DNA of 64,000 bases, taken from the IMG/VR virus record IMGVR_UViG_3300006217_000002. The stretch is one strand, 5' to 3'. This DNA comes from a virus (taxonomy: Duplodnaviria; Heunggongvirae; Uroviricota; Caudoviricetes). Numbering within the stretch: the stretch's first letter is position 1; each line of letters starts with the position of its first letter. Positions 153 through 55,237 of the stretch are shown here, piece after piece. The notes below the pieces were generated by a model. It saw only the letters and a program-made list of their open reading frames with translations, had not been told where the DNA came from and did no database searches. Both the position numbers and the translations under genes were made by a program.

Positions 153-464
153 ATGAATAAAACTCAAAGATTAGTAGGAAAGTTTGATATTCCTGAGGAA
201 TTAGCGAAAGAGCTTTCTGAATTACTCACAAAGCAAACTATCAGAACAAATATGTTACTTCAGGTACTCGATGATACTGATAAATATGAAAGTATCGAAA
301 ACAAGTTAATTCCAATTACATCGAGAATTGAAGCTATTAAGATCAGGATCACGAATGAATTTGTTCCTGCAGAATTCAATTCAATGAAATATGTATGGAA
401 TTATGACGGTTGGGAAGTAGCTGGTACAACAGTCAATGTGTTTGAAACTGTATATCAAAATTAA
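153..464 (+). CDS. 103-aa protein, candidate CXXX-repeat modification system accessory protein
   Basis: AAGGAG RBS. Size, N-terminal RLVGK, helical middle and C-terminal VP...W-x-YD recall the small accessory proteins of CXXX-repeat rSAM loci (by eye); lies next to the Cys-rich gene. Confidence 0.5.
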   Translation: MNKTQRLVGKFDIPEELAKELSELLTKQTIRTNMLLQVLDDTDKYESIENKLIPITSRIEAIKIRITNEFVPAEFNSMKYVWNYDGWEVAGTTVNVFETVYQN

Positions 465-472
465 ACAAAAGA

Positions 473-507
473 ATATTCAAGGGGAGGATCATCCTCCCCT
501 TGAATAT
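473..507. terminator. Bidirectional intrinsic terminator hairpin
   Basis: ATATTCAAGGGGAGGAT-C-ATCCTCCCCTTGAATAT between convergent genes. Confidence 0.8.
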
Positions 508-658: not shown

Positions 659-952
659 CTAAATTTCAACTACGATAATTGGTTTGTTTAAAATTGCGGA
701 TATTCCAAAAATAGTAGTATTTAATTTGGGGTGAGCATCTATACTTTCTCTCATTAATGCTTCTTTTATGACTTTATTTCTCACAGATATGTTTTCTCTT
801 TCATATTCTTCATATCCATTGCAAAACATTTTGTCTATATTTACTGCATTAATATGAAAATAAAATTCTCCAGCTTGTTCCTTAGTATAGATATTTTCAG
901 GAATTTCTTCGTATAAAACCTCCTTAATATTACTCATTGAAATCACCTCCAT
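659..952 (-). CDS. Hypothetical protein
   Basis: 97-aa ORF translationally coupled to the Cys-rich gene. Confidence 0.7.
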   Translation of the reverse strand: MEVISMSNIKEVLYEEIPENIYTKEQAGEFYFHINAVNIDKMFCNGYEEYERENISVRNKVIKEALMRESIDAHPKLNTTIFGISAILNKPIIVVEI

Positions 953-3879
953 TAAATCTCTTCATATTCACTGATATCCATAGGTTTAGTGGAAGTAGGT
1001 TTTTCATCGTTTTTCAGAATAGCTTTAACTCTTGAAATAGGTATTACTGATAATAGATCTCCGTTGATAGTGGCATATCGCCTTTCATCTTGAGATTCAA
1101 CTACAATATTACCATTAGCAATATCTTTTATAATATCTTTAGGTATTGGCTCTATAGTTATATCATTCGCTGTAACTGGCATTGTAGGAAGAGCATATTT
1201 GAATCCATTAATGATTTTCATTACGTCTTCTGAATCAATTGGTATCAAATATCTTTCCATATCAGTGTCACGAAGCATTGTAACATGACGTTGAATAATA
1301 TATACCATATCTCCATCTTTATTATACAATGGACCTATTGTTTCAAATCCCCAAGGAAGTTTACTTTCTACATCTTCAGGAAGTAAAGGTATATCAGGAT
1401 TATTATAAACGCGGACTACAAATATACCTCTATTACCATCTAATGACGGTTTAGCTTCTGGTATTTCAGCTGCTAAGAAATCTTCATTAATAGAAATATC
1501 TCCGATTTCAGAATCTACATTCCATACTCCACCTATTAATGTAGTTGCGTATGTAACCCAAGTTAATCCATCTACACAAATCACTTCAAGGTTAAGTTTG
1601 TCATTAAATGTTATAAGGACCTTAGGATTAGTAGGTTCAGGTACTGGTTTCTTATAAGGAAGAATATCTGTATATATCTTAAATGATTCTCTTTCTTCCC
1701 ATCTATTCTTTGGATGAGGGTAAATATATCCATTAGCTATTGGATCTCTTTCAGGACCAGGAGTCTTAGTTGGTTCGCTCTTTAAAAATGTTGAGCAACT
1801 TCCAGAGCATGTGTTAATGCATACATTTGAACAATCACTTGCACATCCTCTATTACACGTAATATCACACCAGTAACTACACATGTTAGAACATGTAGAA
1901 CATCCATTTTCGCATTTAACTGAGCATACTCCTATACACATACCTACACATGAATAGCATAGATTAGAACATCCTCCACATTCCTCCGTACAAGAATGAA
2001 CACAGTTAGTTTCACATGAATGCTCACAAGTTGCTGTACATGTAATGTTACATGCTGCTCCACATCCGTTAGAACATTCTGAAACACATGGACCGCATTG
2101 CCAACCACACGAATTTACACAACTACTACATGTAGAAGAACATGCATCTTCACATAATGATGTACAAGATGAACTCATACAAGATAGTCTACAATTAGAA
2201 TCACAAGCTCCAGCATTATCAATACCACATATAGATCTACATCCCCATCCTACACAATTAGAATTACAATCATTTTGGCACATCCCTGTACATATATTAT
2301 TACATGCATGAAATGAAGCTTTATCTTTACATTCATCTTTACAATCGTTAATACATGTATCTTCACATCCCGATCCACAATGTGTAGAGCATTGATAAGC
2401 ACAATTATCCGAACATGTTTGTTTACAAGCGGAATAGCAAGTATGAATACATGTACCTTCGCAAACTCCTTTACATTCTCCTACACAGTTTATGGTACAA
2501 CCGCCTGAACAGCCTCTACCTTTTCCTGATTTAAATTCTCCAGAGTTTTCAGAAGCATTATCGATACATCCACCGTAACAAGAAGTAGAACAAGAATTTG
2601 TACACGAAGTAAAACATTTACTCATACAATCAGCATCCCAACATGTAGTTTTCTTGTTAGGATAGAATTGACATGTATAAGAACATCCCTGGCATGTATA
2701 GTATGTTGATTCTATATGATTAGAAGCATATTCTCCATTATGTCCGCCCTTTGTATAGATCTTTACTGTTTTAGCTCCAGCTTTTAAACATGAATATCCA
2801 GATGTATTTTCACATTTTGTTTTACAAGAAGAATAGCACATAGTACTACATCCTGTACAAAGGTTTCCACAACTAGATGTACATGCGTTTCCGCATCTAT
2901 TCCAACAAGTAGTACTACACGATTCTGAACATTCATTATCACATGTTTGATAACATAAGCCTGTACATGCAACGTTACATGATGTTCTAACTCCTCCTTT
3001 TACAGGTCTTGAAACATACATGTTTCCCATCTCTGGGTTTCGTGGATTAGGACCATATGATGATGATTTCACTCCACCCTGAGTGATATGAGTTCTTTCG
3101 TCCTTTCGATCATGACCTTGGTCATTCCAATCTCTATCCACAATAGGAGATATAAAAGGATTATAAGGATGGAAATCTCCATCACCAGGTTTTGCTCCAT
3201 AATCGTCATAAAAATTTTTCTCATTTAATCCTTCAAATTCTAATGCTTCTTCTCCATCACTTTCTCCAGATGGCATTACATATTGACCATTTTCCATAGG
3301 ATATGTTATATTTACATTCTCCGGATATCTTGGATTTCTGTAATCAGTAATATTACCATTAGGATCCGGCTTTACAGGAGATAAATCTGATTCTGAAAGA
3401 GGTTTATTTAACTCACTAGCTTCAGCTGCTATTAGTGCCTCCTCTATACCATTGGGATCTCTGAAAGCTGTATATTCAACCTCATCTCTTCCATAGAATA
3501 AATTAATATCCTGAATCTTTGATAATCCTACCAAAAAGTTTCTCATTTCATCAAATGACATTTTAGCTGCAGATGTATTAGGAACACTAGTTTCATCACT
3601 AGGATCCTCACCAGCTGGATTTTCTCCTCTGTCAGGATATAACACATTCTTAGTTTTTTCAATAGATCCATCTGATGGATTATTGATAGTATACGTTTTT
3701 TCATTAACAGGAAATCTATCACCTATTTCTGGTATTGATAACGGAGAAGATTTATCTTGACCAACAGATGGAGTAGTTAATGGATCCCACCACTTAAAAG
3801 TTCCTCTACGCTGGATTTCCTGATTTAATCGTTTTTTAATTTCTGTAAATTCTGTATTTGACCATAAATTATTATTCAA
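952..3879 (-). CDS. 975-aa protein with a central CXXX-repeat (about 85 Cys) region; putative radical-SAM modification target
   Basis: About 400-aa core of C-x3-C / C-x2-C repeats, flanked by an N-terminal acidic/Pro-rich region (about 295 aa) and a C-terminal globular-looking region (about 270 aa); GGAGGTG RBS. Confidence 0.85.
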   Translation of the reverse strand: MNNNLWSNTEFTEIKKRLNQEIQRRGTFKWWDPLTTPSVGQDKSSPLSIPEIGDRFPVNEKTYTINNPSDGSIEKTKNVLYPDRGENPAGEDPSDETSVPNTSAAKMSFDEMRNFLVGLSKIQDINLFYGRDEVEYTAFRDPNGIEEALIAAEASELNKPLSESDLSPVKPDPNGNITDYRNPRYPENVNITYPMENGQYVMPSGESDGEEALEFEGLNEKNFYDDYGAKPGDGDFHPYNPFISPIVDRDWNDQGHDRKDERTHITQGGVKSSSYGPNPRNPEMGNMYVSRPVKGGVRTSCNVACTGLCYQTCDNECSESCSTTCWNRCGNACTSSCGNLCTGCSTMCYSSCKTKCENTSGYSCLKAGAKTVKIYTKGGHNGEYASNHIESTYYTCQGCSYTCQFYPNKKTTCWDADCMSKCFTSCTNSCSTSCYGGCIDNASENSGEFKSGKGRGCSGGCTINCVGECKGVCEGTCIHTCYSACKQTCSDNCAYQCSTHCGSGCEDTCINDCKDECKDKASFHACNNICTGMCQNDCNSNCVGWGCRSICGIDNAGACDSNCRLSCMSSSCTSLCEDACSSTCSSCVNSCGWQCGPCVSECSNGCGAACNITCTATCEHSCETNCVHSCTEECGGCSNLCYSCVGMCIGVCSVKCENGCSTCSNMCSYWCDITCNRGCASDCSNVCINTCSGSCSTFLKSEPTKTPGPERDPIANGYIYPHPKNRWEERESFKIYTDILPYKKPVPEPTNPKVLITFNDKLNLEVICVDGLTWVTYATTLIGGVWNVDSEIGDISINEDFLAAEIPEAKPSLDGNRGIFVVRVYNNPDIPLLPEDVESKLPWGFETIGPLYNKDGDMVYIIQRHVTMLRDTDMERYLIPIDSEDVMKIINGFKYALPTMPVTANDITIEPIPKDIIKDIANGNIVVESQDERRYATINGDLLSVIPISRVKAILKNDEKPTSTKPMDISEYEEI
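1786..2982 (-). repeat. Cys-x3 periodic repeat tract (protein level)
   Basis: SCNVACTGLCYQTC...CINTCSGSCSTF; 85 Cys by manual count. Confidence 0.95.
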
Positions 3880-3995: not shown

Positions 3996-4277
3996 ATGGC
4001 TAAGACTAACTTTAATGATCTTATCAAAGAAGATCCAGAACTGGCAGCAGGTATTCTTCAGAACTCTTTTATTCATGTCGTGAATAATATGATTCCGAAT
4101 ATCTATCTTACTAAAGAGGAATACAAACAGCTTGTAGGGATTATTCTTGCAGGTAATGCTAAAGATCCTGATGAAGTAGAAGGTTCTGAAAACTCTGGAA
4201 ATGAGGGTGGAGAAGATCCTAGCGATCCTAAAGAACCTGTGAAAGAGGAAGGTGGCGGAGACGTTACTACCGAATAA
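3996..4277 (+). CDS. 93-aa hypothetical protein with acidic Gly/Glu tail
   Basis: AAGGAG RBS; codon usage like other highly expressed genes here. Confidence 0.8.
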   Translation: MAKTNFNDLIKEDPELAAGILQNSFIHVVNNMIPNIYLTKEEYKQLVGIILAGNAKDPDEVEGSENSGNEGGEDPSDPKEPVKEEGGGDVTTE

Positions 4278-4315: not shown

Positions 4316-4349
4316 AATATGATGGAGGGGAATTCCCCTCCATCATATT
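4316..4349. terminator. Perfect 34-bp palindrome, bidirectional terminator
   Basis: AATATGATGGAGGGGAA|TTCCCCTCCATCATATT between convergent genes. Confidence 0.8.
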
Positions 4350-6168
4350 ATTCTTTATTTTTATTTTCAATTACGCTTATCATCGCATATGATTCTAATG
4401 CTTTAAGTAAATTTAGTTCGTCTTCATCAATAACTAGAAGAGCCCACTTATCCGGAACATTATTCTTTCTAACACTTAAATTATATTCAGGATGTTTGAT
4501 ACATAAAGCATTCCAGTAATATACGTTTGCCAATGCTTCAGCAATCATCTGAATGCAAGTAAACATTGTTTTCTTATTAAGAACACCATATGTTTGATAA
4601 CCTAAAGCTGAACAAGCAGCACAATCATTTGAAATTGGGCATTCATAACAAATATCATTTGATTGAGCTCTCCTAGTATTCCTATCAAGTTCAAATAATA
4701 TTTTTGACTCATCACTTCTCTCTATCATTCCAGTATTAACATTGCCTATACTCATATTGGGAAGATCGTCTCCAACTGATGTAGGCATATATCTAATACA
4801 AGGATAGAAATCTCCATTCGGTCTCATAGATAACATACTAGCAGATCCCCCTCCACAGAAGTTGCTATCCTGTGACGGATCCATCATATCTTCCTGACGT
4901 TCGTTGAATATAGCTATATAAAGATTTTCAAGATTATTATCAAGGATATAATCTGCTAGTTTTTTCAATTGCTCATATTCTATCAATGCAGTTTTTTGAT
5001 TCCATCCCTCTTCAAATACACAGTTAATATTTATAACTGACATCCCATTATTAATGAAATCAACTACTGAATCAAATAGGTATGATATATTAGATGGAGC
5101 TAAAGTCATTTTAGAATTTCTTTCTGGAGTAAAATGTTCATTGAAATGATTTAATGCTGCCATACTTATATCATAGCTTCCTTCACCATTAGGTTGAATT
5201 CTGCAAGAATCATGAAGTTCTTTATTTCCATCAATAGAAATATTAAATGACACTTGAGATACGTAGTCTTTAAAAAACTGCTGTACATTGTCATTGAAAT
5301 ATTGGAGCCCATTAGAGCATATAGATAGCCTATGGAATGTAAACCATGGATGATTTAATTCATAGCATCTATCAAGAAAATATTCATAAATCTGTCTAGT
5401 TAAATCAATTTCTAATAGAGGTTCTCCTCCAATAAATTCGATAATGACAGCTGGAGAATTATATCTATTAATATATCCATAATCATCATTAAGAAGATGA
5501 TCGATAAACTTTTTAGCAGTTTCGAAATTCATTCTTGCTGGAGTTTTATTACATTGATAGCAATATGTACATGATAACGAACATGCTTCAGTTGTTTGGA
5601 ATGTAAAGTTATGAACAAATACATCTTTATCGTCACCTACACCAAGATGAGATTGGTGTTTATTTTCAAATAATTCAGGAAATGCTTTAGCTATTCCATC
5701 GTTATATGAATCAGTAAAAAACCTAAAATATTCATTTGGAAACATATTAAACGGTTTAGATGAATAGATTATATTATCTACATATTCCAAGTATTCTTTA
5801 TTTTCAGATACAAGTACCATTGTGAATTTAACATAAGATGTATCAATAATAACATCCTTTGCTAATACATCTTTGATATCTTCAAGATGATAAGGATCTG
5901 GTATAGTAATAATTTCAGTTAAAAAATTATATAAAAATATACCAAAATATTTCCTTATTTCTAATCCTTTATTTGTAAATTCTGCTTTAAGATCATCAAC
6001 TTTATCAATATCTCTATTATGTTTAATCATATATTTCAATCTAAACATAATAGCATCTATTTCGATAGATAATCTGTCTAATCTGTAATCACCAAATGTA
6101 TCAAGCATATATTTATCAAATTGAATTTTATATAATTTGACATCTTTTTCTAATTTAAAAGCTTTCAT
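4348..6168 (-). CDS. Radical SAM/SPASM peptide maturase, CXXX-repeat target family, with about 190-aa N-terminal extension
   Basis: CxxxCxxC (TEACSLSCTYCYQ), IEFIGGEPLL, SIDGNKELHDSCR, SPASM Cys set (FCGGG...FYPCIRY...CYECPISNDCAACS...TC). ATG at 6168 with AAGGAG preferred over TTG at 6186. Confidence 0.9.
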   Translation of the reverse strand: MKAFKLEKDVKLYKIQFDKYMLDTFGDYRLDRLSIEIDAIMFRLKYMIKHNRDIDKVDDLKAEFTNKGLEIRKYFGIFLYNFLTEIITIPDPYHLEDIKDVLAKDVIIDTSYVKFTMVLVSENKEYLEYVDNIIYSSKPFNMFPNEYFRFFTDSYNDGIAKAFPELFENKHQSHLGVGDDKDVFVHNFTFQTTEACSLSCTYCYQCNKTPARMNFETAKKFIDHLLNDDYGYINRYNSPAVIIEFIGGEPLLEIDLTRQIYEYFLDRCYELNHPWFTFHRLSICSNGLQYFNDNVQQFFKDYVSQVSFNISIDGNKELHDSCRIQPNGEGSYDISMAALNHFNEHFTPERNSKMTLAPSNISYLFDSVVDFINNGMSVININCVFEEGWNQKTALIEYEQLKKLADYILDNNLENLYIAIFNERQEDMMDPSQDSNFCGGGSASMLSMRPNGDFYPCIRYMPTSVGDDLPNMSIGNVNTGMIERSDESKILFELDRNTRRAQSNDICYECPISNDCAACSALGYQTYGVLNKKTMFTCIQMIAEALANVYYWNALCIKHPEYNLSVRKNNVPDKWALLVIDEDELNLLKALESYAMISVIENKNKE

Positions 6169-6224
6169 TATATTAACTCCTTTCAAAGAATATTTATAAA
6201 GCTAGTGATTATAAAATGTAAAAT

Positions 6225-6259
6225 AATTATAAGGGGGATATAATATCCCCCTTATAATT
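6225..6259. terminator. Intrinsic terminator hairpin
   Basis: AATTATAAGGGGGATAT-A-ATATCCCCCTTATAATT directly after the stop of 6260..7792. Confidence 0.8.
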
Positions 6260-8256: not shown

Positions 8257-8266
8257 ATAACAACGG

Positions 8267-8297
8267 ATAATAGGGGCTTGTAACAAGCCCCTATTAT
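8267..8297. terminator. Bidirectional terminator hairpin
   Basis: ATAATAGGGGCTTGT-A-ACAAGCCCCTATTAT plus T tract. Confidence 0.8.
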
Positions 8298-8300
8298 TTT

Positions 8301-10292: not shown

Positions 10293-10302
10293 AATAAAAT
10301 AA

Positions 10303-10337
10303 ATACAATAGCCCGAGAATTTCTCGGGCTATTGTAT
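10303..10337. terminator. Terminator hairpin
   Basis: ATACAATAGCCCGAGAA-T-TTCTCGGGCTATTGTAT. Confidence 0.8.
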
Positions 10338-10340
10338 AAA

Positions 10341-10754
10341 CTAATTTTTTACTTTCTCTACCTCTCTTTGAAACTCATTAGTCAGATCAAGGACCATCTG
10401 ATACTCTTTTCTAATATCAACGATCTCCGAATTAAGAGTATTAAATTGCTTCTTTAATTCTTCTGATAATTCTAATACTTCATCAGTTGGAACGTTGATA
10501 CCTGCTACGTTTGTGTTTTTAAGAATGTAGAGGTTGGTGTCAAGAATCAGAATCTGAATTTGATATATTAATGCTTCCCTTTCCTTTTCCTTTTGGGTCA
10601 ATTTCTGTTTAAGCATTTTTTCTTTTTCGATGAACGTGGTCTGTTCATCTATTTTATTGATTACTTTGTCTTGTTTTTTCTGGATCAGTAAAGTAATTAC
10701 AGAAAATACACCAGTTATTACTGCGATAATCACAGTAGAAAGATATTGATCCAT
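10341..10754 (-). CDS. Holin-like membrane protein (one N-terminal TM plus coiled coil)
   Basis: STVIIAVITGVFSVITLLI then a charged heptad-rich tail. Confidence 0.5.
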   Translation of the reverse strand: MDQYLSTVIIAVITGVFSVITLLIQKKQDKVINKIDEQTTFIEKEKMLKQKLTQKEKEREALIYQIQILILDTNLYILKNTNVAGINVPTDEVLELSEELKKQFNTLNSEIVDIRKEYQMVLDLTNEFQREVEKVKN

Positions 10755-10797
10755 TGATATCGACCTCCTTCCATAGATATTAAATTATTTTATGATC

Positions 10798-11409
10798 TTA
10801 TTGAATCATCTTACTTCTGATCTCTCTAGATAAAGAATCATATCGATTAATAATACTTTGATATTCCCTTATCAAGAGAATAATGAACAACATCAACGTT
10901 AGGAATATAGATATATAACACGCAATGTTGAAGTATAATAACTCTTTTTCTGCATCGTCACTATATGAATACACCATGAGATATCGTTCACCACTTGGAA
11001 GATCAGTCCATTTATAATAAATATTTATGATCTCGTCAGTCGATATAGTAACCGTGCCTTCATCTTTGGATAGAAATTCAGCTTTCATTTCAGGATGATT
11101 ATGAATTCCTTTATAATAATTACTTACATCAAGAAACACCATTCTTCCTATTAAATTGAAATCAGGATCAAAAACTTCAATCATTCTACAAGAATCTGGA
11201 TAATATTCTATAACAGGTCTTCCATTTTCCTTAAATTCTTCAGCAACTTCTTGCTTATGTAAAACAACTACAGATCCATCATCATATAAAGAGAGAAAGC
11301 CATGCATTCTTTTGACAGAGTTATAGTTCATTATAAAGCACTTACATATCATGATAGCTATGATTATGAATATTTCTATTCTGATTCTTGTCTTTTTCTT
11401 TTTACTCAT
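10798..11409 (-). CDS. Two-TM membrane protein with extracytoplasmic PDC/Cache-like domain, paralogue B
   Basis: TM-about 125 aa-TM; shares YxPDSCxMIE motif with 11440..12051; start MSKKKK chosen by RBS. Confidence 0.6.
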   Translation of the reverse strand: MSKKKKTRIRIEIFIIIAIMICKCFIMNYNSVKRMHGFLSLYDDGSVVVLHKQEVAEEFKENGRPVIEYYPDSCRMIEVFDPDFNLIGRMVFLDVSNYYKGIHNHPEMKAEFLSKDEGTVTISTDEIINIYYKWTDLPSGERYLMVYSYSDDAEKELLYFNIACYISIFLTLMLFIILLIREYQSIINRYDSLSREIRSKMIQ

Positions 11410-31021: not shown

Positions 31022-33838
31022 TTATATATCCTCGATCAGGTCATCTGGATTAATCGTGTAAAGTTCTACCAAACTATTATGTTTAGCTTTAAGCCCTAAG
31101 TTTAACGCTGCGTGAGAAATTTGAACTGCAAATAATCCAGCATTATAAGCTCCAAGTAAATAGAACAGTTTACCAGCACACTTAGAACAAATTTTTTCAC
31201 CAGTACAAGACATTGGACTTCTCATCATAATTGTTTTGCCAATATGAGAACTAATATCTTCTCTAGTAAACATCTTTTCCTGACCACCTTCTCTATAGTA
31301 TGTATATACTACGTTCTCTGCATTTGCTTTTGTTATTTTAATTGGAATAAGATTCTTTGTACCACAATCAGAACCCTCTTCATCAAGTACCATCATTTGC
31401 AATAATGCTAACAGTTTCTTGCCCATATAACCAGCATCAGCAGTAGCAATGGAAGCAGGATATTGAGATGCCAATATTGAATTAGCATGGGCAGGAATAT
31501 CTTTAATTTTAATTCCATCCATAAATGATGTATCAATAAAATCAAACTCTCCTGTTATCTTATTCATTACAGCACCTTTGATAATAGCGTTGTTCTTATA
31601 GTTATTACCAAAATCAAGGTCACCGGAATCATATAGATCCATGCCAGAATCACCTTTAAGAATCTCTTTTGCATATGCTACAAGTTCATCACTGACTTGT
31701 GTCATTATATCAATATTTCCAGAAGATAATTCTTTTTCATATTTCTTACATAGTTCTGCCTTTTTCTTTTCAATTTCAGGTAATGGTTTTAACATCTTTT
31801 CAGAAATAGTATGAGCAAGCATACCATTTAACCAATAACCTATAGTATCTCTATGATCAAGATATGAATTAAACTGTTTCCTATCAATCTTATCTTCAAG
31901 ATACAATTGACCAATCATATTATCCAGCTTACCTATAGTTCCCTTGTTAAGGATATTATTATATATACCAACACCAGTAATTCCAATAATACCAGGAGCT
32001 TCTAAGATAAATTTATTAGCTATAAACCTACCTACAGTCATATCTATAGACTCCTGATTATCAAAGAAATAATTAGCAGGTACTGAAATAATATCCCAAG
32101 TATTATATCTTGCTTTACGAATTTTTGTATTAAGTTTATCTCCTGAGTTATTCACAGTATCCGCAAACATTTCAGCCAAGAAACCTCTACTAATATTATC
32201 TGGTTTAAGATTAATGAATCTCTCTGTATCACCTGGATTAACTTTCTTACTAGGAGTACTACCAATCTTCGTAAGTTCATAGAGAGAATTATAAACTTCT
32301 TTAGCAACTCCTTTAGAGTTTGCTCCAGTAATATTAAGAGCTGATGTCTTTCTATTCATAATCTCTTCAGCTTCCATATTAGCTTCATCACTATAGATAC
32401 CACGAACAGATACCTGATCACCATCATAGTCAGCTCCCATTCCATCAAGATGAGAGTTACTCATTACAAGAGTATCTATAAATTGAACACCAACTTTATC
32501 TTGAGAAATAGAAAAATCTATATCAGGATAATACGGATATTCTTTTCCATTAAAAATAAGATTAACATGCTTTATTGTTGACTGAACTCTTATCTTGTTA
32601 AAGAAAATACCTTTATCAGTACCAACAGGATATCTTGATACCATTACATGCCTCTTCTCGCATACATCGACACATGCAAGATATAAGATATCAGTTACTG
32701 TCATAGATCTATTAAGAACCTTTGTAGCATTATTAGGAAGCATTATTTTTCCTTTTAATATCATAGAAGCTTTAAGAGTCTTCTTAGTTTTAGCAGGAAC
32801 ATCAACCATTACGTTTACTACTTTAAATCTATTATCAGGATTTAAACAATAATCGTTTATAAACTTCCTAATATTCTTCTCTGAAAATTGAATCTCAGGA
32901 TCTCTCATTGTTGCTGTAATTTCCTTATTAGTCTCATAATCATAAAACGTTATCAAGTTTGGGTCATTAATAATTTCTCTAGTAAAGAAATTCTTAAGCC
33001 AAGATTCAATAAATGGATAAAATAATGAGCAACATTCAGAGATTGGTACTGCCGTATGTTCAACATCAATAATATTGTCTCCTATGTTTTCATTATTATA
33101 TGAAGGAGCAGAGATAACTGTACGTACACCATAGTCTACAGACTTACCTATCAGATTCTTTCTAATAAGACCTTGTTTTCTAGATACTTGATGTTTAAAA
33201 TATTCCATTATTTCAACCAGAGTATCCTGGATTTTCATTTGTGTTGCATATTGAGTTCTAGAAAATAATCCTCCCTCTGATAGTAAAGCAACAGATCGAA
33301 TTAACTTTACATATAGATCATTTAATTCATTTACATGGTCTGATGAATCAATAGTACCAGCAATCATTACATCTCTATATGCAGGAGGTATCACCAATTC
33401 CTTATCGATAAATATCTGATCTCTTGATAAGTTCATGAGTAATTTTTTACTTGTACTATCAACTGATTTACTTTTACTCCAATCAATTTCATTCCATCTT
33501 TTATATAATTCATCAATACCAGTCCATCCATTCTCTGGATCTTCTACAAGTTGTCCATTTTTAATAACATATCTTTTCTGACCTGATAGAATATATATAA
33601 CTCCTCTAAACATTTGCTTTACTACTTTAGCATATAGATGAGGATGAATAAAATGTCTTTTCAAATCAATATAAGCAAAAGTATTTCTTCTATCTCCTTT
33701 AGATATACCAAAAATATCAGACGATAATATTCCTTCCGGATCATACATCATCTTATTGGAAAATAGACGGGGAGATGTAATTTCTTGCAATTTATTTACA
33801 GCGATAATTCTATTCATGTCAAGAATTTCTATCTTCAT
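31022..33838 (-). CDS. rpoC: Phage multisubunit RNA polymerase beta-prime subunit
   Basis: GLIRKNLIGKSVDY, SRYPV, catalytic GADYDGD, C-terminal Zn site CGT...RSPMSC...ICSKCAG. Confidence 0.93.
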   Translation of the reverse strand: MKIEILDMNRIIAVNKLQEITSPRLFSNKMMYDPEGILSSDIFGISKGDRRNTFAYIDLKRHFIHPHLYAKVVKQMFRGVIYILSGQKRYVIKNGQLVEDPENGWTGIDELYKRWNEIDWSKSKSVDSTSKKLLMNLSRDQIFIDKELVIPPAYRDVMIAGTIDSSDHVNELNDLYVKLIRSVALLSEGGLFSRTQYATQMKIQDTLVEIMEYFKHQVSRKQGLIRKNLIGKSVDYGVRTVISAPSYNNENIGDNIIDVEHTAVPISECCSLFYPFIESWLKNFFTREIINDPNLITFYDYETNKEITATMRDPEIQFSEKNIRKFINDYCLNPDNRFKVVNVMVDVPAKTKKTLKASMILKGKIMLPNNATKVLNRSMTVTDILYLACVDVCEKRHVMVSRYPVGTDKGIFFNKIRVQSTIKHVNLIFNGKEYPYYPDIDFSISQDKVGVQFIDTLVMSNSHLDGMGADYDGDQVSVRGIYSDEANMEAEEIMNRKTSALNITGANSKGVAKEVYNSLYELTKIGSTPSKKVNPGDTERFINLKPDNISRGFLAEMFADTVNNSGDKLNTKIRKARYNTWDIISVPANYFFDNQESIDMTVGRFIANKFILEAPGIIGITGVGIYNNILNKGTIGKLDNMIGQLYLEDKIDRKQFNSYLDHRDTIGYWLNGMLAHTISEKMLKPLPEIEKKKAELCKKYEKELSSGNIDIMTQVSDELVAYAKEILKGDSGMDLYDSGDLDFGNNYKNNAIIKGAVMNKITGEFDFIDTSFMDGIKIKDIPAHANSILASQYPASIATADAGYMGKKLLALLQMMVLDEEGSDCGTKNLIPIKITKANAENVVYTYYREGGQEKMFTREDISSHIGKTIMMRSPMSCTGEKICSKCAGKLFYLLGAYNAGLFAVQISHAALNLGLKAKHNSLVELYTINPDDLIEDI

Positions 33839-54064: not shown

Positions 54065-55237
54065 CTACTTCATAAATTTCTTGAAGATCTCAGAAGGATT
54101 TACCTCAGACTGCTGACGTGCTTTCTTATCCGCTTTCTTGCGTTCAGCCATTACATCATATGATGCTCCTTCTCCGGATAAGATATAATTCGAAGATTCA
54201 TCTTTAGCAAGTGCCGCCTTGAGTTCATCGATACGATCTGTGATCTTCTTTACTCTATCATTTATTGGAGATAATCCAGATGCAATCATATAGAGGAAGT
54301 TCAGAGCTTCAGAACCATCATTAATTGCATTATGGTTAAATCTTTCCACCGGTGTGCCGATGAAATCGTTTAATCCTTCAAGCTCAGGAGAATATAATCT
54401 ATTAACCTGATCAGTGAAGTAAGTGATGATGCCCCATCTTACTACTTTCTTGTTTCTGTCTGTCTCTGTATGTGCTGACTTCTTGATAGCTTTGATGATG
54501 ATGTCATCAAGTTTGCTGTCTTCCATTGCTTTCTCTGTAAGCTGCTTGTTAATACGTACCACGAGAAGTCTGCCTGGAGTAGTGATGATGGATTCCATAT
54601 CAGCTTCATCGATCGATTCATAAGGAGTAGGATAATTATCAACACCTGTAAGAATCTTCAGATCTTCAACGATATTCTTATTTACTTCCTCAAGAGCTCT
54701 TGTAGGAGGCAGATCTGATGTCGCTTCATTATCATAGATCATGTAGGTTGTATCAGACCCAAGTACATCATAAAGCTCATTTAAGAATTCAAGCGCATTT
54801 CCCTGTTCCATAAGAGATGCATTGAGTTGAGGTAATACTCCAATGAGAATAAAGTTTGTATCAGGGAATAACTGTCTCATGATTTCCATCAATACAGGTG
54901 CAGCTCCAGAACCTGTCCCCCCCGCTGCCGATGTTACTACGAAACAATATTTCTTTTCTACAATACATTCCTGAAGATTTGCATCAGCCAGAATCGTATT
55001 GATGTCTGCCATGAGATACTCTTTCATCTTAGTACGATTCTTTCCAGAACCCTCGATTTCATCCCTGTTGCCGATCTTGAACTTTAAGTTGTCATGCTCT
55101 GTCTTTACCATTGCAAGATCTGCTTCAGAACTGTTTACGTAGATTGTGTCGAATAGCTCAGGATATGTCTTTTCTGCAAGATATGCTACCTGAGAGCCAC
55201 AGTTTCCAATACCAATAATTGCCGCTTGTTTGTTCAT
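54065..55237 (-). CDS. Tubulin/FtsZ-family GTPase (PhuZ/TubZ-like)
   Basis: IIGIGNCGSQ, AAGGTGSG signature, GVLP, YDNE; helical C-terminal tail. Confidence 0.9.
   Translation of the reverse strand: MNKQAAIIGIGNCGSQVAYLAEKTYPELFDTIYVNSSEADLAMVKTEHDNLKFKIGNRDEIEGSGKNRTKMKEYLMADINTILADANLQECIVEKKYCFVVTSAAGGTGSGAAPVLMEIMRQLFPDTNFILIGVLPQLNASLMEQGNALEFLNELYDVLGSDTTYMIYDNEATSDLPPTRALEEVNKNIVEDLKILTGVDNYPTPYESIDEADMESIITTPGRLLVVRINKQLTEKAMEDSKLDDIIIKAIKKSAHTETDRNKKVVRWGIITYFTDQVNRLYSPELEGLNDFIGTPVERFNHNAINDGSEALNFLYMIASGLSPINDRVKKITDRIDELKAALAKDESSNYILSGEGASYDVMAERKKADKKARQQSEVNPSEIFKKFMK

Follow-up and report, generated by a model that had tools for sequence, protein, structure and literature searches.

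The window analysed here is a stretch of 64,000 nucleotides from a virus of the class Caudoviricetes (IMG/VR record IMGVR_UViG_3300006217_000002), a phiKZ-like jumbo phage. Its minus strand encodes a 975-aa CXXX-repeat protein, P0001 (952..3879), which begins with a TTG codon behind a Shine-Dalgarno sequence (GGAGGTG) 6 nt upstream. The upstream gene, on the same strand, codes for a 612-aa radical SAM (rSAM)/SPASM maturase, P0002 (4348..6186), which is preceded in turn by the gene of a tail-fibre-like protein, P0003 (6260..7792, minus strand), whose residues 40-166 match PHROG tail-fibre and minor-tail families. Directly after P0001 comes a conserved small ORF (659..952, minus strand) with a probable ATG start at 937, which gives 92 aa, and the same Shine-Dalgarno sequence as P0001. 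A predicted bidirectional terminator-like hairpin (473..507) ends the operon, and a convergent 103-aa ORF (153..464, plus strand) is conserved in relatives. The maturase is split from its presumed target by a 93-aa ORF on the opposite strand (3996..4277, plus strand), with a palindromic hairpin behind it (4316-4349); a counterpart of this ORF is found at the same place in three relatives (L004, L050, and L052). Since a strong hairpin also ends P0003, and an antisense gene lies between P0002 and P0001, the three are not necessarily cotranscribed.

P0001 contains 86 cysteines, and 85 of them lie within a 395-residue middle, residues 301-695 (1795..2979, minus strand). Among the 84 gaps between neighbouring core cysteines, 68 are of 4 residues (CxxxC), 7 of 3 (CX2 steps), and 3 of 5; the six longer gaps, of 8, 8, 9, 10, 19, and 32 residues, are the interruptions of the core. 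When the core was permuted 20,000 times, the number of CxxxC gaps was 8.8 ± 2.8, with a maximum of 20. The segmented 85-Cys core proposed in a preliminary description of this DNA, with its Cys-free loops and its CX2 steps, is thereby confirmed. Cysteine makes up 22% of the core, and its neighbours are small and polar. We found no tandem repeat at the DNA level in the gene, so that the tract is neither a recent expansion nor an assembly artefact. AlphaFold2 gave no usable model of the core (pLDDT 20 to 35 for residues 320-695) and thus favoured none of the forms suggested for it earlier, namely, a solenoid, a rod, a disulfide ladder, or a metal wire.

The core is interrupted by three longer Cys-free loops and by three shorter ones, ENTSGYS, QFYPNKKTT, and GIDNAGA. 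Comparison of the loops across homologues, a check suggested earlier, gave entropies from 0.26 to 2.67. The lowest value belongs to QFYPNKKTT (residues 404-412; 2644..2670, minus strand), the best conserved of the non-Cys elements, in which Y406, P407, N408, and K409 are invariant; this loop is kept in divergent short-core members too. Loop 1 (residues 365-395, LKAGAK...STYYT, LKAGAKTVKIYTKGGHNGEYASNHIESTYYT; 2695..2787, minus strand) is moderately conserved (entropy 1.38 for residues 357-395), and AlphaFold2 predicts a beta-hairpin there at low confidence. Loop 2 (residues 439-456, IDNASENSGEFKSGKGRG; 2512..2565, minus strand) has an entropy of 1.61. The highest value is that of loop 3 (residues 518-525, KDKASFHA; 2305..2328, minus strand), a hypervariable indel hotspot at which the extra CXXX units of relatives are inserted.

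P0001 has at least 137 homologues, and the Pfam family PF27846 is precomputed on all those listed, as it is on P0004, a protein 98% identical to P0001. In an alignment of 92 homologues (about 50 to 78% identical), 81 of the 85 core cysteines are invariant and all 85 are conserved at 90% or more, those at the CX2 and CX4 register shifts among them. The Cys register, on which the preliminary description had staked its reading, is thus shared by the family. The lone tail cysteine, Cys768, is not conserved, and the core of most homologues counts 88 cysteines versus 85 in P0001. In the same 92 homologues, the x positions of the 68 CxxxC units hold neither Pro nor Cys, and none of them stands out as an acceptor residue for a cross-link. 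Every unit has its own conserved sequence. With its nearly invariant register, shifts included, its lack of Pro at the x positions, and its unit-specific sequences, the core looks like a product of defined three-dimensional structure rather than low-complexity sequence.

The N-terminal domain (residues 1-300; 2980..3879, minus strand) is conserved and Pro rich (27 Pro), with little regular secondary structure. Its family is narrow (24 representatives at 50% clustering), and structure searches with the full model found no match to its fold. At its start, residues 4-27 (xSNTEFTEIKKRLNQEIQRRGT; 3799..3870, minus strand) form a predicted helix, with residues 8-24 at a pLDDT of about 90. This is the only N-terminal stretch that P0001 has in common with the short CXXX proteins (150 to 250 aa) of a second phage lineage (hhalign probability 85%, E 6e-6), whose radical SAM enzyme is 35% identical. 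The helix fits a candidate maturase-recognition element, and to that extent the recognition leader of the preliminary description stands. However, it is separated from the core by about 275 conserved residues modelled at a pLDDT of 70 to 90, and family searches found no peptidase family among the operon genes. For these reasons, the N terminus does not resemble a classical cleavable leader; the three parts of the proposed leader-core-follower layout are real, but they are unlike their RiPP analogues. To our knowledge, there is no precedent for a RiPP maturase leader at least 275 residues from the first target cysteine and up to 690 from the last.

Past the last core cysteine, the homologue alignment shows a conserved linker (residues 696-735, GPER..P...GYIYPHPKNRWEERESF; 1675..1794, minus strand) and then an optional C-terminal module (residues 736-975; 955..1674, minus strand). 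In the preliminary description, the last 270 aa looked like an independent globular domain. Residues 740-865 do model as a beta-rich domain (pLDDT 70 to 87), but residues 866-975 are poorly modelled and the whole tail is optional: across homologues its length runs from 22 to 300 aa in discrete classes, and it is absent in L004. Searches, in which its fold was compared as part of the full model, found no fold or sequence relatives of the module outside its own family. The receptor-binding or distal parts of phage fibres usually show this kind of pattern, with a constant body and a C-terminal module that varies.

Against the NCBIfam family TIGR04115 ("CXXX-repeat target" maturase), P0002 scored 342.7 bits (E 3e-102), 7 bits below the curated cutoff of 350 bits, with positions 3-359 of the 359-position model covered; the enzyme of the reference cassette L013 scores 630 bits. 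The match is more than twice as strong as the next, PapB (153 bits), which is followed by CcpM, QhpD, and the SCIFF maturase, and a 69%-identical homologue of P0002 carries the TIGR04115 family name at NCBI. The AlphaFold2 model of P0002 (pLDDT 81.5) had its best structural match in CteB (5WHY; Z 27.1, rmsd 3.5 Å over 333 aa) and also matched anSME (Z 24.7); among PDB sequences, CteB was found at E 3.6e-18. The rSAM and SPASM catalytic region (residues 193-557; 4516..5610, minus strand) contains C202, C206, and C209 of the CxxxCxxC motif and seven SPASM cysteines at 444, 463, 513, 516, 522, 525, and 544; all ten cluster cysteines are invariant in alignments A2 and A5. Six positions have been defined as lining the active site of CteB (PMC10288494). 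CteB Y210, I252, C290, S317, I464, and R465 correspond to F, F, T, S, H, and Q in P0002, one identity in six, and since the other five differ, the chemistry may differ as well. The catalytic region is preceded by an extra N-terminal domain (residues 1-190; 5617..6186, minus strand), modelled at a pLDDT above 90 as a strand, a long helical hairpin, a beta-hairpin, and a helix; profile searches found no family match for it. The alignment with CteB, in which this domain was searched within the full model, takes in P0002 residues 188-560 from CteB residue 90 onwards and leaves the N-terminal RRE region of CteB uncovered. The extra domain is absent from the enzyme type of the gut phage L001, whose rSAM gene comes after a separate ORF of about 200 aa. 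The adjacent radical SAM enzyme and its likeness to the CXXX-repeat-target family were not used in the preliminary description.

The order of fibre-like gene, rSAM gene, Cys-core gene, and 90-aa ORF recurs in L003 to L007, and L002 keeps the last three of these (L002 to L007 are contigs of 270 to 292 kb). In L050 and L052, the rSAM gene is followed by that of the Cys-core protein. In gut phages of 115 to 140 kb (L001 and L014 to L046), an rSAM/CXXX pair lies directly after baseplate and fibre genes. In the cultivable Salmonella phage SPN3US, three unannotated CXXX ORFs are found upstream of two rSAM genes, right after a gene for a "virion structural protein." An rSAM gene stands next to a CXXX protein in every lineage examined, although the enzymes are only 24 to 35% identical between lineages. 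QueC-like and membrane-protein genes lie a few kilobases off in our window, and the region is not a clean structural block. Homologues were binned with Ruminococcus and Lachnospiraceae MAGs, and the hosts thus appear to be gut or rumen anaerobes.

On the evidence of the TIGR04115 family and the structural match to CteB, P0001 and P0002 appear to be an oversized phage variant of the catalogued, biochemically uncharacterised CXXX-repeat system (TIGR04115 maturase; TIGR04114/04117/04118 and PF27846 targets; TIGR04116 and TIGR04119 partners). There, a TIGR04115 maturase and a CxxxC target are encoded by adjacent genes; P0002, with TIGR04115 as its best match, and P0001 follow this pattern. However, the targets of that system have about 50 to 175 aa, whereas P0001 has 975 aa and 85 core cysteines and adds a folded N-domain of 300 aa and an optional C-module. 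P0002 likewise departs from the family in its fused 190-aa N-domain and in its score just under the cutoff. The CXXX protein of the reference cassette L013 has a Tat signal, with genes for TatA and TatC beside it; P0001 has no Tat signal. A local HMM scan of P0001 gave a weak TIGR04118 match of 19 bits against a cutoff of 35, and the local Pfam copy gave no match. The TIGR04119 second maturase, which scores 235 bits in L013, was not detected among P0001, P0002, P0003, and the small neighbouring ORFs. The TIGR04116 partner had no match in the 103-aa ORF, a 97-aa ORF, or the P0002 N-domain. Kinship of the 103-aa ORF to TIGR04116 was also unsupported by direct comparison with the L013 protein (BLAST E 0.17, hhalign probability 0.3%). 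The system has been defined bioinformatically, and we found no biochemical study of it (TIGR04114-04119/PF27846) in the literature. Because we know of no experiment on any TIGR04115 member, the type of reaction is drawn from cousin enzymes.

These cousins are the ranthipeptide/sactipeptide synthases CteB (SCIFF, PDB 5WHY), PapB, and QhpD, which share with P0002 an rSAM domain, a seven-Cys SPASM domain, and Cys-rich substrates. P0002 differs from them in its presumed substrate, which is a large protein and about ten times richer in cysteines, and in scores far under the cutoffs of their families (153 versus 340, 92 versus 453, and 86 versus 425 bits); no RRE was recognised in it. Classical RiPP precursors are short, with a leader removed by a protease, whereas P0001 has 975 aa, of which the N-terminal 300 are conserved and predicted to fold. 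The Cys-x3-Asp acceptor of PapB is unavailable in P0001, with its cysteines at both i and i+4; PapB, too, is reported to handle repeated C-x3-X units (PMC10739248).

Short CXXX proteins are also encoded by other phages. Those of gut phage MT835573 and its IMG/VR relatives (L001 and L014 to L046) share with P0001 both the N-terminal helix motif and the start of the core, C-x3-C-(T/S)-G-L-C, whereas the N termini of the three SPN3US ORFs (L008) are only loosely similar. Both sets of cassettes have a related rSAM enzyme and lie beside fibre or structural genes, as here. Unlike P0001, these proteins have 68 to 250 aa and about 6 to 36 cysteines and terminate with the core, and a separate ORF of 200 to 300 aa precedes the rSAM gene where P0002 has its fused domain.

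The reading we favour, with about an even chance of being right, is that P0001 is a full-size protein substrate of P0002 in a phage-adapted form of CXXX-repeat maturation, the product being cross-linked and likely part of a fibre or baseplate. Judged from sequence, the phage probably uses a radical SAM enzyme to staple a full-size protein chemically. Enzymatic modification of the cysteines is the leading explanation because the adjacent enzyme has its best match by far in the CXXX-repeat-target radical SAM family. P0002 would engage P0001, probably via helix 4-27 and possibly through its own extra N-terminal domain. In a host cytoplasm that would be anoxic and reducing, its 5'-deoxyadenosyl-radical chemistry would turn many of the 85 cysteines, locked in register, into covalent cross-links within the molecule. 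Like the products of PapB, QhpD, and CteB, all of which are thioether makers, these links would most likely be thioethers from the cysteine sulfur to a carbon of a nearby residue. The result would be a rigid segment of about 400 residues, resistant to reduction and proteases and displaying a few loops, with the conserved N-domain as its anchor and the exchangeable C-terminal module at its far end. We infer that P0002 acts on P0001 and forms thioethers in it, and that P0001 resides in the virion, most likely in the fibre or baseplate apparatus. The location in the virion is suggested by synteny, namely, the fibre-like P0003 nearby and the short cassettes that follow baseplate/fibre genes in L001 and L014 and the "virion structural protein" gene in SPN3US. 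Searches of Pfam, PHROGs, PDB sequences, and, with Foldseek, PDB and BFVD gave P0001 no significant match to fibre, baseplate, or virion proteins. A structural likeness to tail or baseplate proteins, a check that the preliminary description had proposed, was not found with VIA-align either (best Z 4.4, not significant), with the core unmodelled and the end domains searched as parts of the full model.

This missing likeness to virion proteins would suit a product that acts in the infected cell or after lysis, for instance, a toxin or bacteriocin in the manner of a giant RiPP, a redox or sulfur sink, an adhesive or matrix protein, or a counter-defence factor. RiPP-type rSAM systems normally yield secreted bioactive peptides, and QueC-like and membrane-protein genes nearby keep the region from being a clean structural block. 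We nevertheless consider it unlikely: the operon has no signal peptide, leader protease, or transporter, fibre or baseplate genes are neighbours in three unrelated phage lineages, and a protein of 975 aa, its body strictly conserved and its end swappable, looks more structural than toxin-like. Another reading takes the ladder as a scaffold that binds Fe-S clusters or many metal ions and works as a wire, as a store, or as a metal ladder along a fibre axis, with P0002 serving cluster insertion or a minor modification. A core in which Cys accounts for 22% of residues, next to small polar residues and with Pro missing from the x positions, and which AlphaFold2 cannot fold in its apo form would agree with it. 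So would the twin-arginine signal of the bacterial-type CXXX protein in L013, with TatA and TatC alongside, as Tat exports proteins already folded or loaded with cofactor; yet Tat export equally suits a pre-cross-linked protein. With PapB, QhpD, and CteB, the nearest characterised enzymes, all making thioethers, and a dedicated SPASM maturase adjoining the target in every lineage examined, we regard the metal scaffold as decidedly unlikely. Moreover, a strict i, i+4 spacing of cysteines over hundreds of residues is not known to match any Fe-S or Zn motif.

Finally, the cysteines might simply oxidise after lysis into a disulfide ladder, the radical SAM gene being a functionally unrelated neighbour. 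Disulfide-laddered beta-helices do occur, for example, in insect antifreeze proteins, and hairpins and an antisense gene interrupt the operon. However, the rSAM/CXXX pairing is kept across lineages whose enzymes are 24 to 35% identical, TIGR04115 is defined by the CXXX association itself, and oxidative folding would be unreliable in hosts that are apparently gut or rumen anaerobes; this explanation is very improbable.

Known substrates of radical SAM maturases of this kind are short peptides. If the stapling of P0001 by P0002 is true, post-translational radical chemistry would build a structural protein, and the TIGR04115 family would gain a tractable, high-copy substrate. Virion parts reinforced by non-peptide bonds or a ligand ladder include the isopeptide chainmail of the HK97 capsid and, in the long tail fibre of T4, the Fe-binding His-x-His needle. 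Such parts are autocatalytic or metal mediated, have neither a radical SAM enzyme nor a Cys ladder, and show no homology to P0001; enzymatic thioether stapling in an anoxic cytoplasm would be a new form of virion hardening. A bolder version, which we put forward tentatively and hold to be somewhat short of probable, is that a jumbo phage radical SAM enzyme installs dozens of Cys cross-links (up to about 85 sites) on a 400-residue stretch of a virion protein. RiPP chemistry at protein scale would then serve as structural material, with links made in the cytoplasm taking the place of disulfides in phages of anaerobes; no known radical SAM substrate would be larger or more heavily modified, and the 24-residue helix would be a portable recognition tag across phage lineages. 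Together, the conserved helix at the N terminus and the exchangeable module at the C terminus suggest an engineerable tag-plus-scaffold system. Among the homologues, inteins occur in both genes, inside the rSAM CxxxCxxC motif and at several ladder cysteines; inteins usually persist in conserved, functionally important genes.

P0001, the 975-aa Cys-core protein encoded at 3879-952 (-), contains 86 Cys residues, 85 of which fall within residues 301-695. The 84 gaps between successive core Cys comprise 68 CxxxC spacings, 7 CX2 steps, 3 CX4 steps and 6 longer Cys-free interruptions; the shuffled core gave 8.8 +/- 2.8 CxxxC gaps. These counts bear out the dense, segmented Cys core proposed in the preliminary description, and the three Cys-free loops quoted there were all present among the six longer interruptions. 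The expected Cys register was conserved in 92 homologues, with 81 of 85 Cys invariant and all 85 at least 90% conserved. The Cys flanking the register shifts were likewise conserved, and Pro and extra Cys were absent from all x positions of the CxxxC units. No nucleotide-level tandem repeats of note were found in the core DNA, which indicates that every unit has diverged; across the 92 homologues the units were conserved one by one despite this mutual divergence. Position-specific conservation at x1, x2 and x3 was used to seek an acceptor residue, and no position stood out.

Loop variability across homologues, raised earlier together with the idea of displayed loops, applied to loop 3, whereas conservation was moderate in loops 1 and 2. 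Loop 3 is hypervariable and a site of indels, with three extra Cys units in most relatives; the loop QFYPNKKTT is nearly invariant (entropy 0.26 in the homologue alignment). Of the core, the more divergent homologues P0129, P0135 and P0143 keep only the first blocks and the YPN-K-T loop, and each has an acidic tail at its C terminus. Because of this retention, the N-proximal part of the core looks, from sequence, like the ancestral part. Scans of IMG/VR and metagenomes for this short-core subfamily yielded ordinary family members only. AlphaFold2 with 92 sequences left the core unmodelled (pLDDT 20 to 35) and did not separate solenoid, helical rod and wire. An unmodelled core would fit, although it does not prove, a fold that depends on modification, cofactors or oligomerization. 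Searches with the full-length P0001 model, which included the end domains only as its parts, gave nothing usable with Foldseek against PDB (best E 0.3) or BFVD (best E 0.2) or with VIA-align wide (best Z 4.4). P0001 had no match among PDB sequences at E 0.1 or better, only a weak match to the CXXX-target family TIGR04118 in Pfam and NCBIfam, and one weak match in PHROG to a group of unknown function.

The adjoining radical SAM (rSAM)/SPASM enzyme P0002 is encoded at 6186-4348 (-). Its catalytic region (aa 193-557) scored 342.7 bits (cutoff, 350) against TIGR04115, the "radical SAM peptide maturase, CXXX-repeat target family," compared to 153, 100, 92 and 86 bits for the runner-up families PapB, CcpM, QhpD and SCIFF maturase. 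A homologue with 69% identity carries the TIGR04115 name at NCBI. The AlphaFold2 model of P0002 (pLDDT 81.5) matched the thioether synthase CteB with a Z score of 27.1 (rmsd 3.5 Å over 333 residues) and anSME with a Z score of 24.7. Six positions that line the active site of CteB have been defined (PMC10288494), and P0002 differs at five of the six. Since the CxxxCxxC motif and the seven SPASM Cys are invariant, P0002 looks competent as an enzyme. In contrast to catalogued TIGR04115 maturases, it carries an additional fused N-terminal domain of ~190 aa, which was confidently modelled and had no match in the family scan. This domain was also compared with a separate 202-aa ORF of the gut-phage locus L001, and their equivalence was rejected because no sequence similarity was found.

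The N terminus of P0001 had been proposed as a possible maturase-recognition leader. Residues 4-27 suit recognition: they form a high-confidence helix in the AlphaFold2 model, with the motif [ST]xx[ED]F[TL]x[IL]KKxxxxEIxRR[SG], and hhalign showed them to be the sole N-terminal segment detectably homologous to the short CXXX proteins of gut phages (probability 85%, E 6e-6). P0001 also has the first core units, C-x3-C-(T/S)-G-L-C, in common with these short proteins. The helix has the appearance expected of a maturase-recognition element and is a candidate for that role. The next 275 residues do not correspond to a discarded leader but to a conserved domain of the mature protein; this region is Pro-rich, was modelled at pLDDT 70 to 90 with few regular secondary-structure elements, and is confined to this phage clade (24 representatives). 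The N termini of the SPN3US CXXX proteins were considered as relatives of the helix, and the similarity was too weak to claim.

The C-terminal "follower" had been described as looking like an independent globular domain. After a conserved linker (...NRWEERESF), aa 740-865 were indeed modelled as a beta-rich domain (pLDDT 70 to 87), but the tail that follows was poorly modelled and the region past the last core Cys ranges from 22 to 300 aa among homologues, with length classes of ~25, 47, 113, 180 and 260 to 280 aa. One member, P0121, has a 600-aa helical insertion. Among shorter proteins, the C-terminal module had no relatives beyond fragments of the same family, and no paralogous module was found elsewhere in the window. 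A protein atlas gave it scores of 0.79 only, the mark for more than a lead being 0.9.

The source is a jumbo phage that is marked as phiKZ-like, and as possibly nucleus-forming, by its genes for a PhuZ-type tubulin and for a fused beta-type subunit of a multisubunit RNA polymerase (54065-55237 and 31022-33838). The G+C content of the window is ~31 to 32%, and its closest relatives are uncultured contigs of 270 to 297 kb. Homologues fell into bins of Ruminococcus and Lachnospiraceae MAGs, in keeping with an anaerobic host. On the minus strand, the order is P0003 (7792-6260; PHROG tail-fibre and minor-tail matches), P0002, a small opposite-strand ORF (3996-4277 (+)), P0001 and a conserved ~92-aa ORF (-) with the same Shine-Dalgarno sequence as P0001. 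A bidirectional hairpin at 473-507 separates the P0001 block from a conserved convergent 103-aa ORF. Five loci (L003-L007) repeat the arrangement of a fibre-like gene, then the rSAM, the Cys-core protein and the 90-aa ORF; L002 retains the last three genes, and in L050 and L052 the Cys-core protein still comes after the rSAM.

A different, unrelated set of gut phages (115 to 140 kb; L001, L014-L046) has, immediately after its baseplate and fibre genes, a cassette that comprises a CXXX protein of 150 to 250 aa, an ORF of 200 aa and an rSAM of 35% identity. In SPN3US-like Salmonella and Erwinia jumbo phages, three tandem, unannotated CXXX ORFs are flanked by a "virion structural protein" on one side and two rSAM genes on the other; in SPN3US (NC_027402, complement of ~143.19 to 144.22 kb) they lie at L008:2094-2486, 2497-2901 and 2917-3123 (130, 134 and 68 aa). 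The SPN3US "hypothetical protein" gp100 (L008 2570-2905) is an Ala/Val/Arg-rich reading of another frame that overlaps one of these ORFs and is probably a mis-call. The phage-database rSAM matches H3-H5 were set aside as irrelevant, being apparently SCIFF-type maturases without CXXX proteins. The "Bacteriophage sp." loci L010, L011 and L012 (MT835472, MT835702 and MT836133) encode rSAMs with the N terminus ...HQYKNNGYNIVLDVNSG... and have no CXXX protein nearby; judging from their sequence, these enzymes appear to be SCIFF-type maturases, and they are unrelated to the CXXX system.

A CXXX-repeat target with a TIGR04115 maturase (Pfam PF27846) is already catalogued as a kind; full-text literature searches found no publications that deal with CXXX systems in phages or with the biochemistry of TIGR04115. 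As the reference for components missing from the window, we used L013 (MT837480.1, "Bacteriophage sp.," 6.8 kb), a complete canonical cassette of a Tat-signal CXXX protein, TIGR04115 (630 bits), TIGR04119, TIGR04116, TatA and TatC. L013 looks bacterial (Bacteroidota-like) rather than phage, and its dedicated Tat pair suggests export of its modified CXXX protein in a folded state. Among P0001, P0002, P0003 and the small neighbouring ORFs of the window system, no TIGR04116, TIGR04119 or Tat component was detected; the convergent 103-aa ORF and a 97-aa ORF were considered as the TIGR04116 partner, which neither the family scan nor the L013 comparison supported. P0001 is larger than catalogued targets, with 85 core Cys (~88 in most relatives), a large N-domain behind the shared helix and an optional C-module. 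Within aa 1-27 (window 3879-3799), the conserved EIQRRGTFKWW loosely resembles a twin-arginine n-region (S/T-R-R-x-F-L-K); the L013 protein has SRREFFK, whereas the P0001 counterpart has no subsequent hydrophobic h-region. That the helix is a relic Tat signal reused for recognition is speculation.

Modification of the P0001 Cys ladder by P0002 is the reading with the best support. The nearest characterized enzymes suggest, by analogy, that the product would be thioether cross-links, whose synthesis is possible in a reducing, anoxic cytoplasm that precludes disulfides; a plain disulfide ladder is very unlikely. The ladder might instead form a metal or Fe-S scaffold, an idea supported by the link to Tat in the bacterial-type cassette, and we regard this as quite unlikely. 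As to where a modified P0001 would act, its constant body and exchangeable distal end, together with a recurring position next to fibre genes, suggest by inference from synteny that it may be a fibre or baseplate component of the virion; a non-virion product is unlikely.

In the region around the cassette, long perfect GC-cored hairpins with 14- to 16-bp stems follow nearly every gene (6225-6259, 4316-4349, 473-507 and 8265-8299); 9 terminator-like sites were observed, versus 2.5 expected. Several relatives also carry a small opposite-strand gene between maturase and target (L004:10377-10922 (-), L050:1395-2042 (-) and L052:1781-2344 (-)). The window copy (3996-4277 (+)) is short, with an acidic tail, and is followed by a hairpin at 4316-4349; the L004 copy has a MucBP (mucin-binding) match below threshold (22.3 bits; cutoff, 23). 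L003 does not have this gene, and its maturase and target genes overlap. L002 has an additional 316-aa, 10-Cys ORF (10302-11252) between the rSAM and Cys-core genes, with a Peptidase_U32 match below threshold (18.6 bits; cutoff, 22.4). U32-family proteins include Fe-S-dependent anaerobic hydroxylases.

Both genes host inteins in relatives of the window system. In the rSAMs of the close relatives L002:8001-10280, L003:7989-10259 and L004:7998-10319, the CxxxCxxC cluster motif is interrupted by a mini-intein of ~150 aa that lies exactly within it (C-x3-C-TY | intein ...HN | C-YQ); the window allele is free of inteins (compare window 5560-5583). Numerous database homologues of the rSAM have Hint, LAGLIDADG or Vint domains and lengths of ~750 to 980 aa. 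Homologues of P0001 (P0009, P0010, P0016, P0018, P0025, P0030, P0033, P0078, P0091, P0094, P0096, P0109 and P0127) also host inteins, which are ~350 aa long and in many cases include a LAGLIDADG endonuclease domain. These inteins occupy at least five sites, near reference residues 305, 309-321, 493, 598 and 637-652, each beside a ladder Cys; multiple independent insertion sites within one protein family are unusual.
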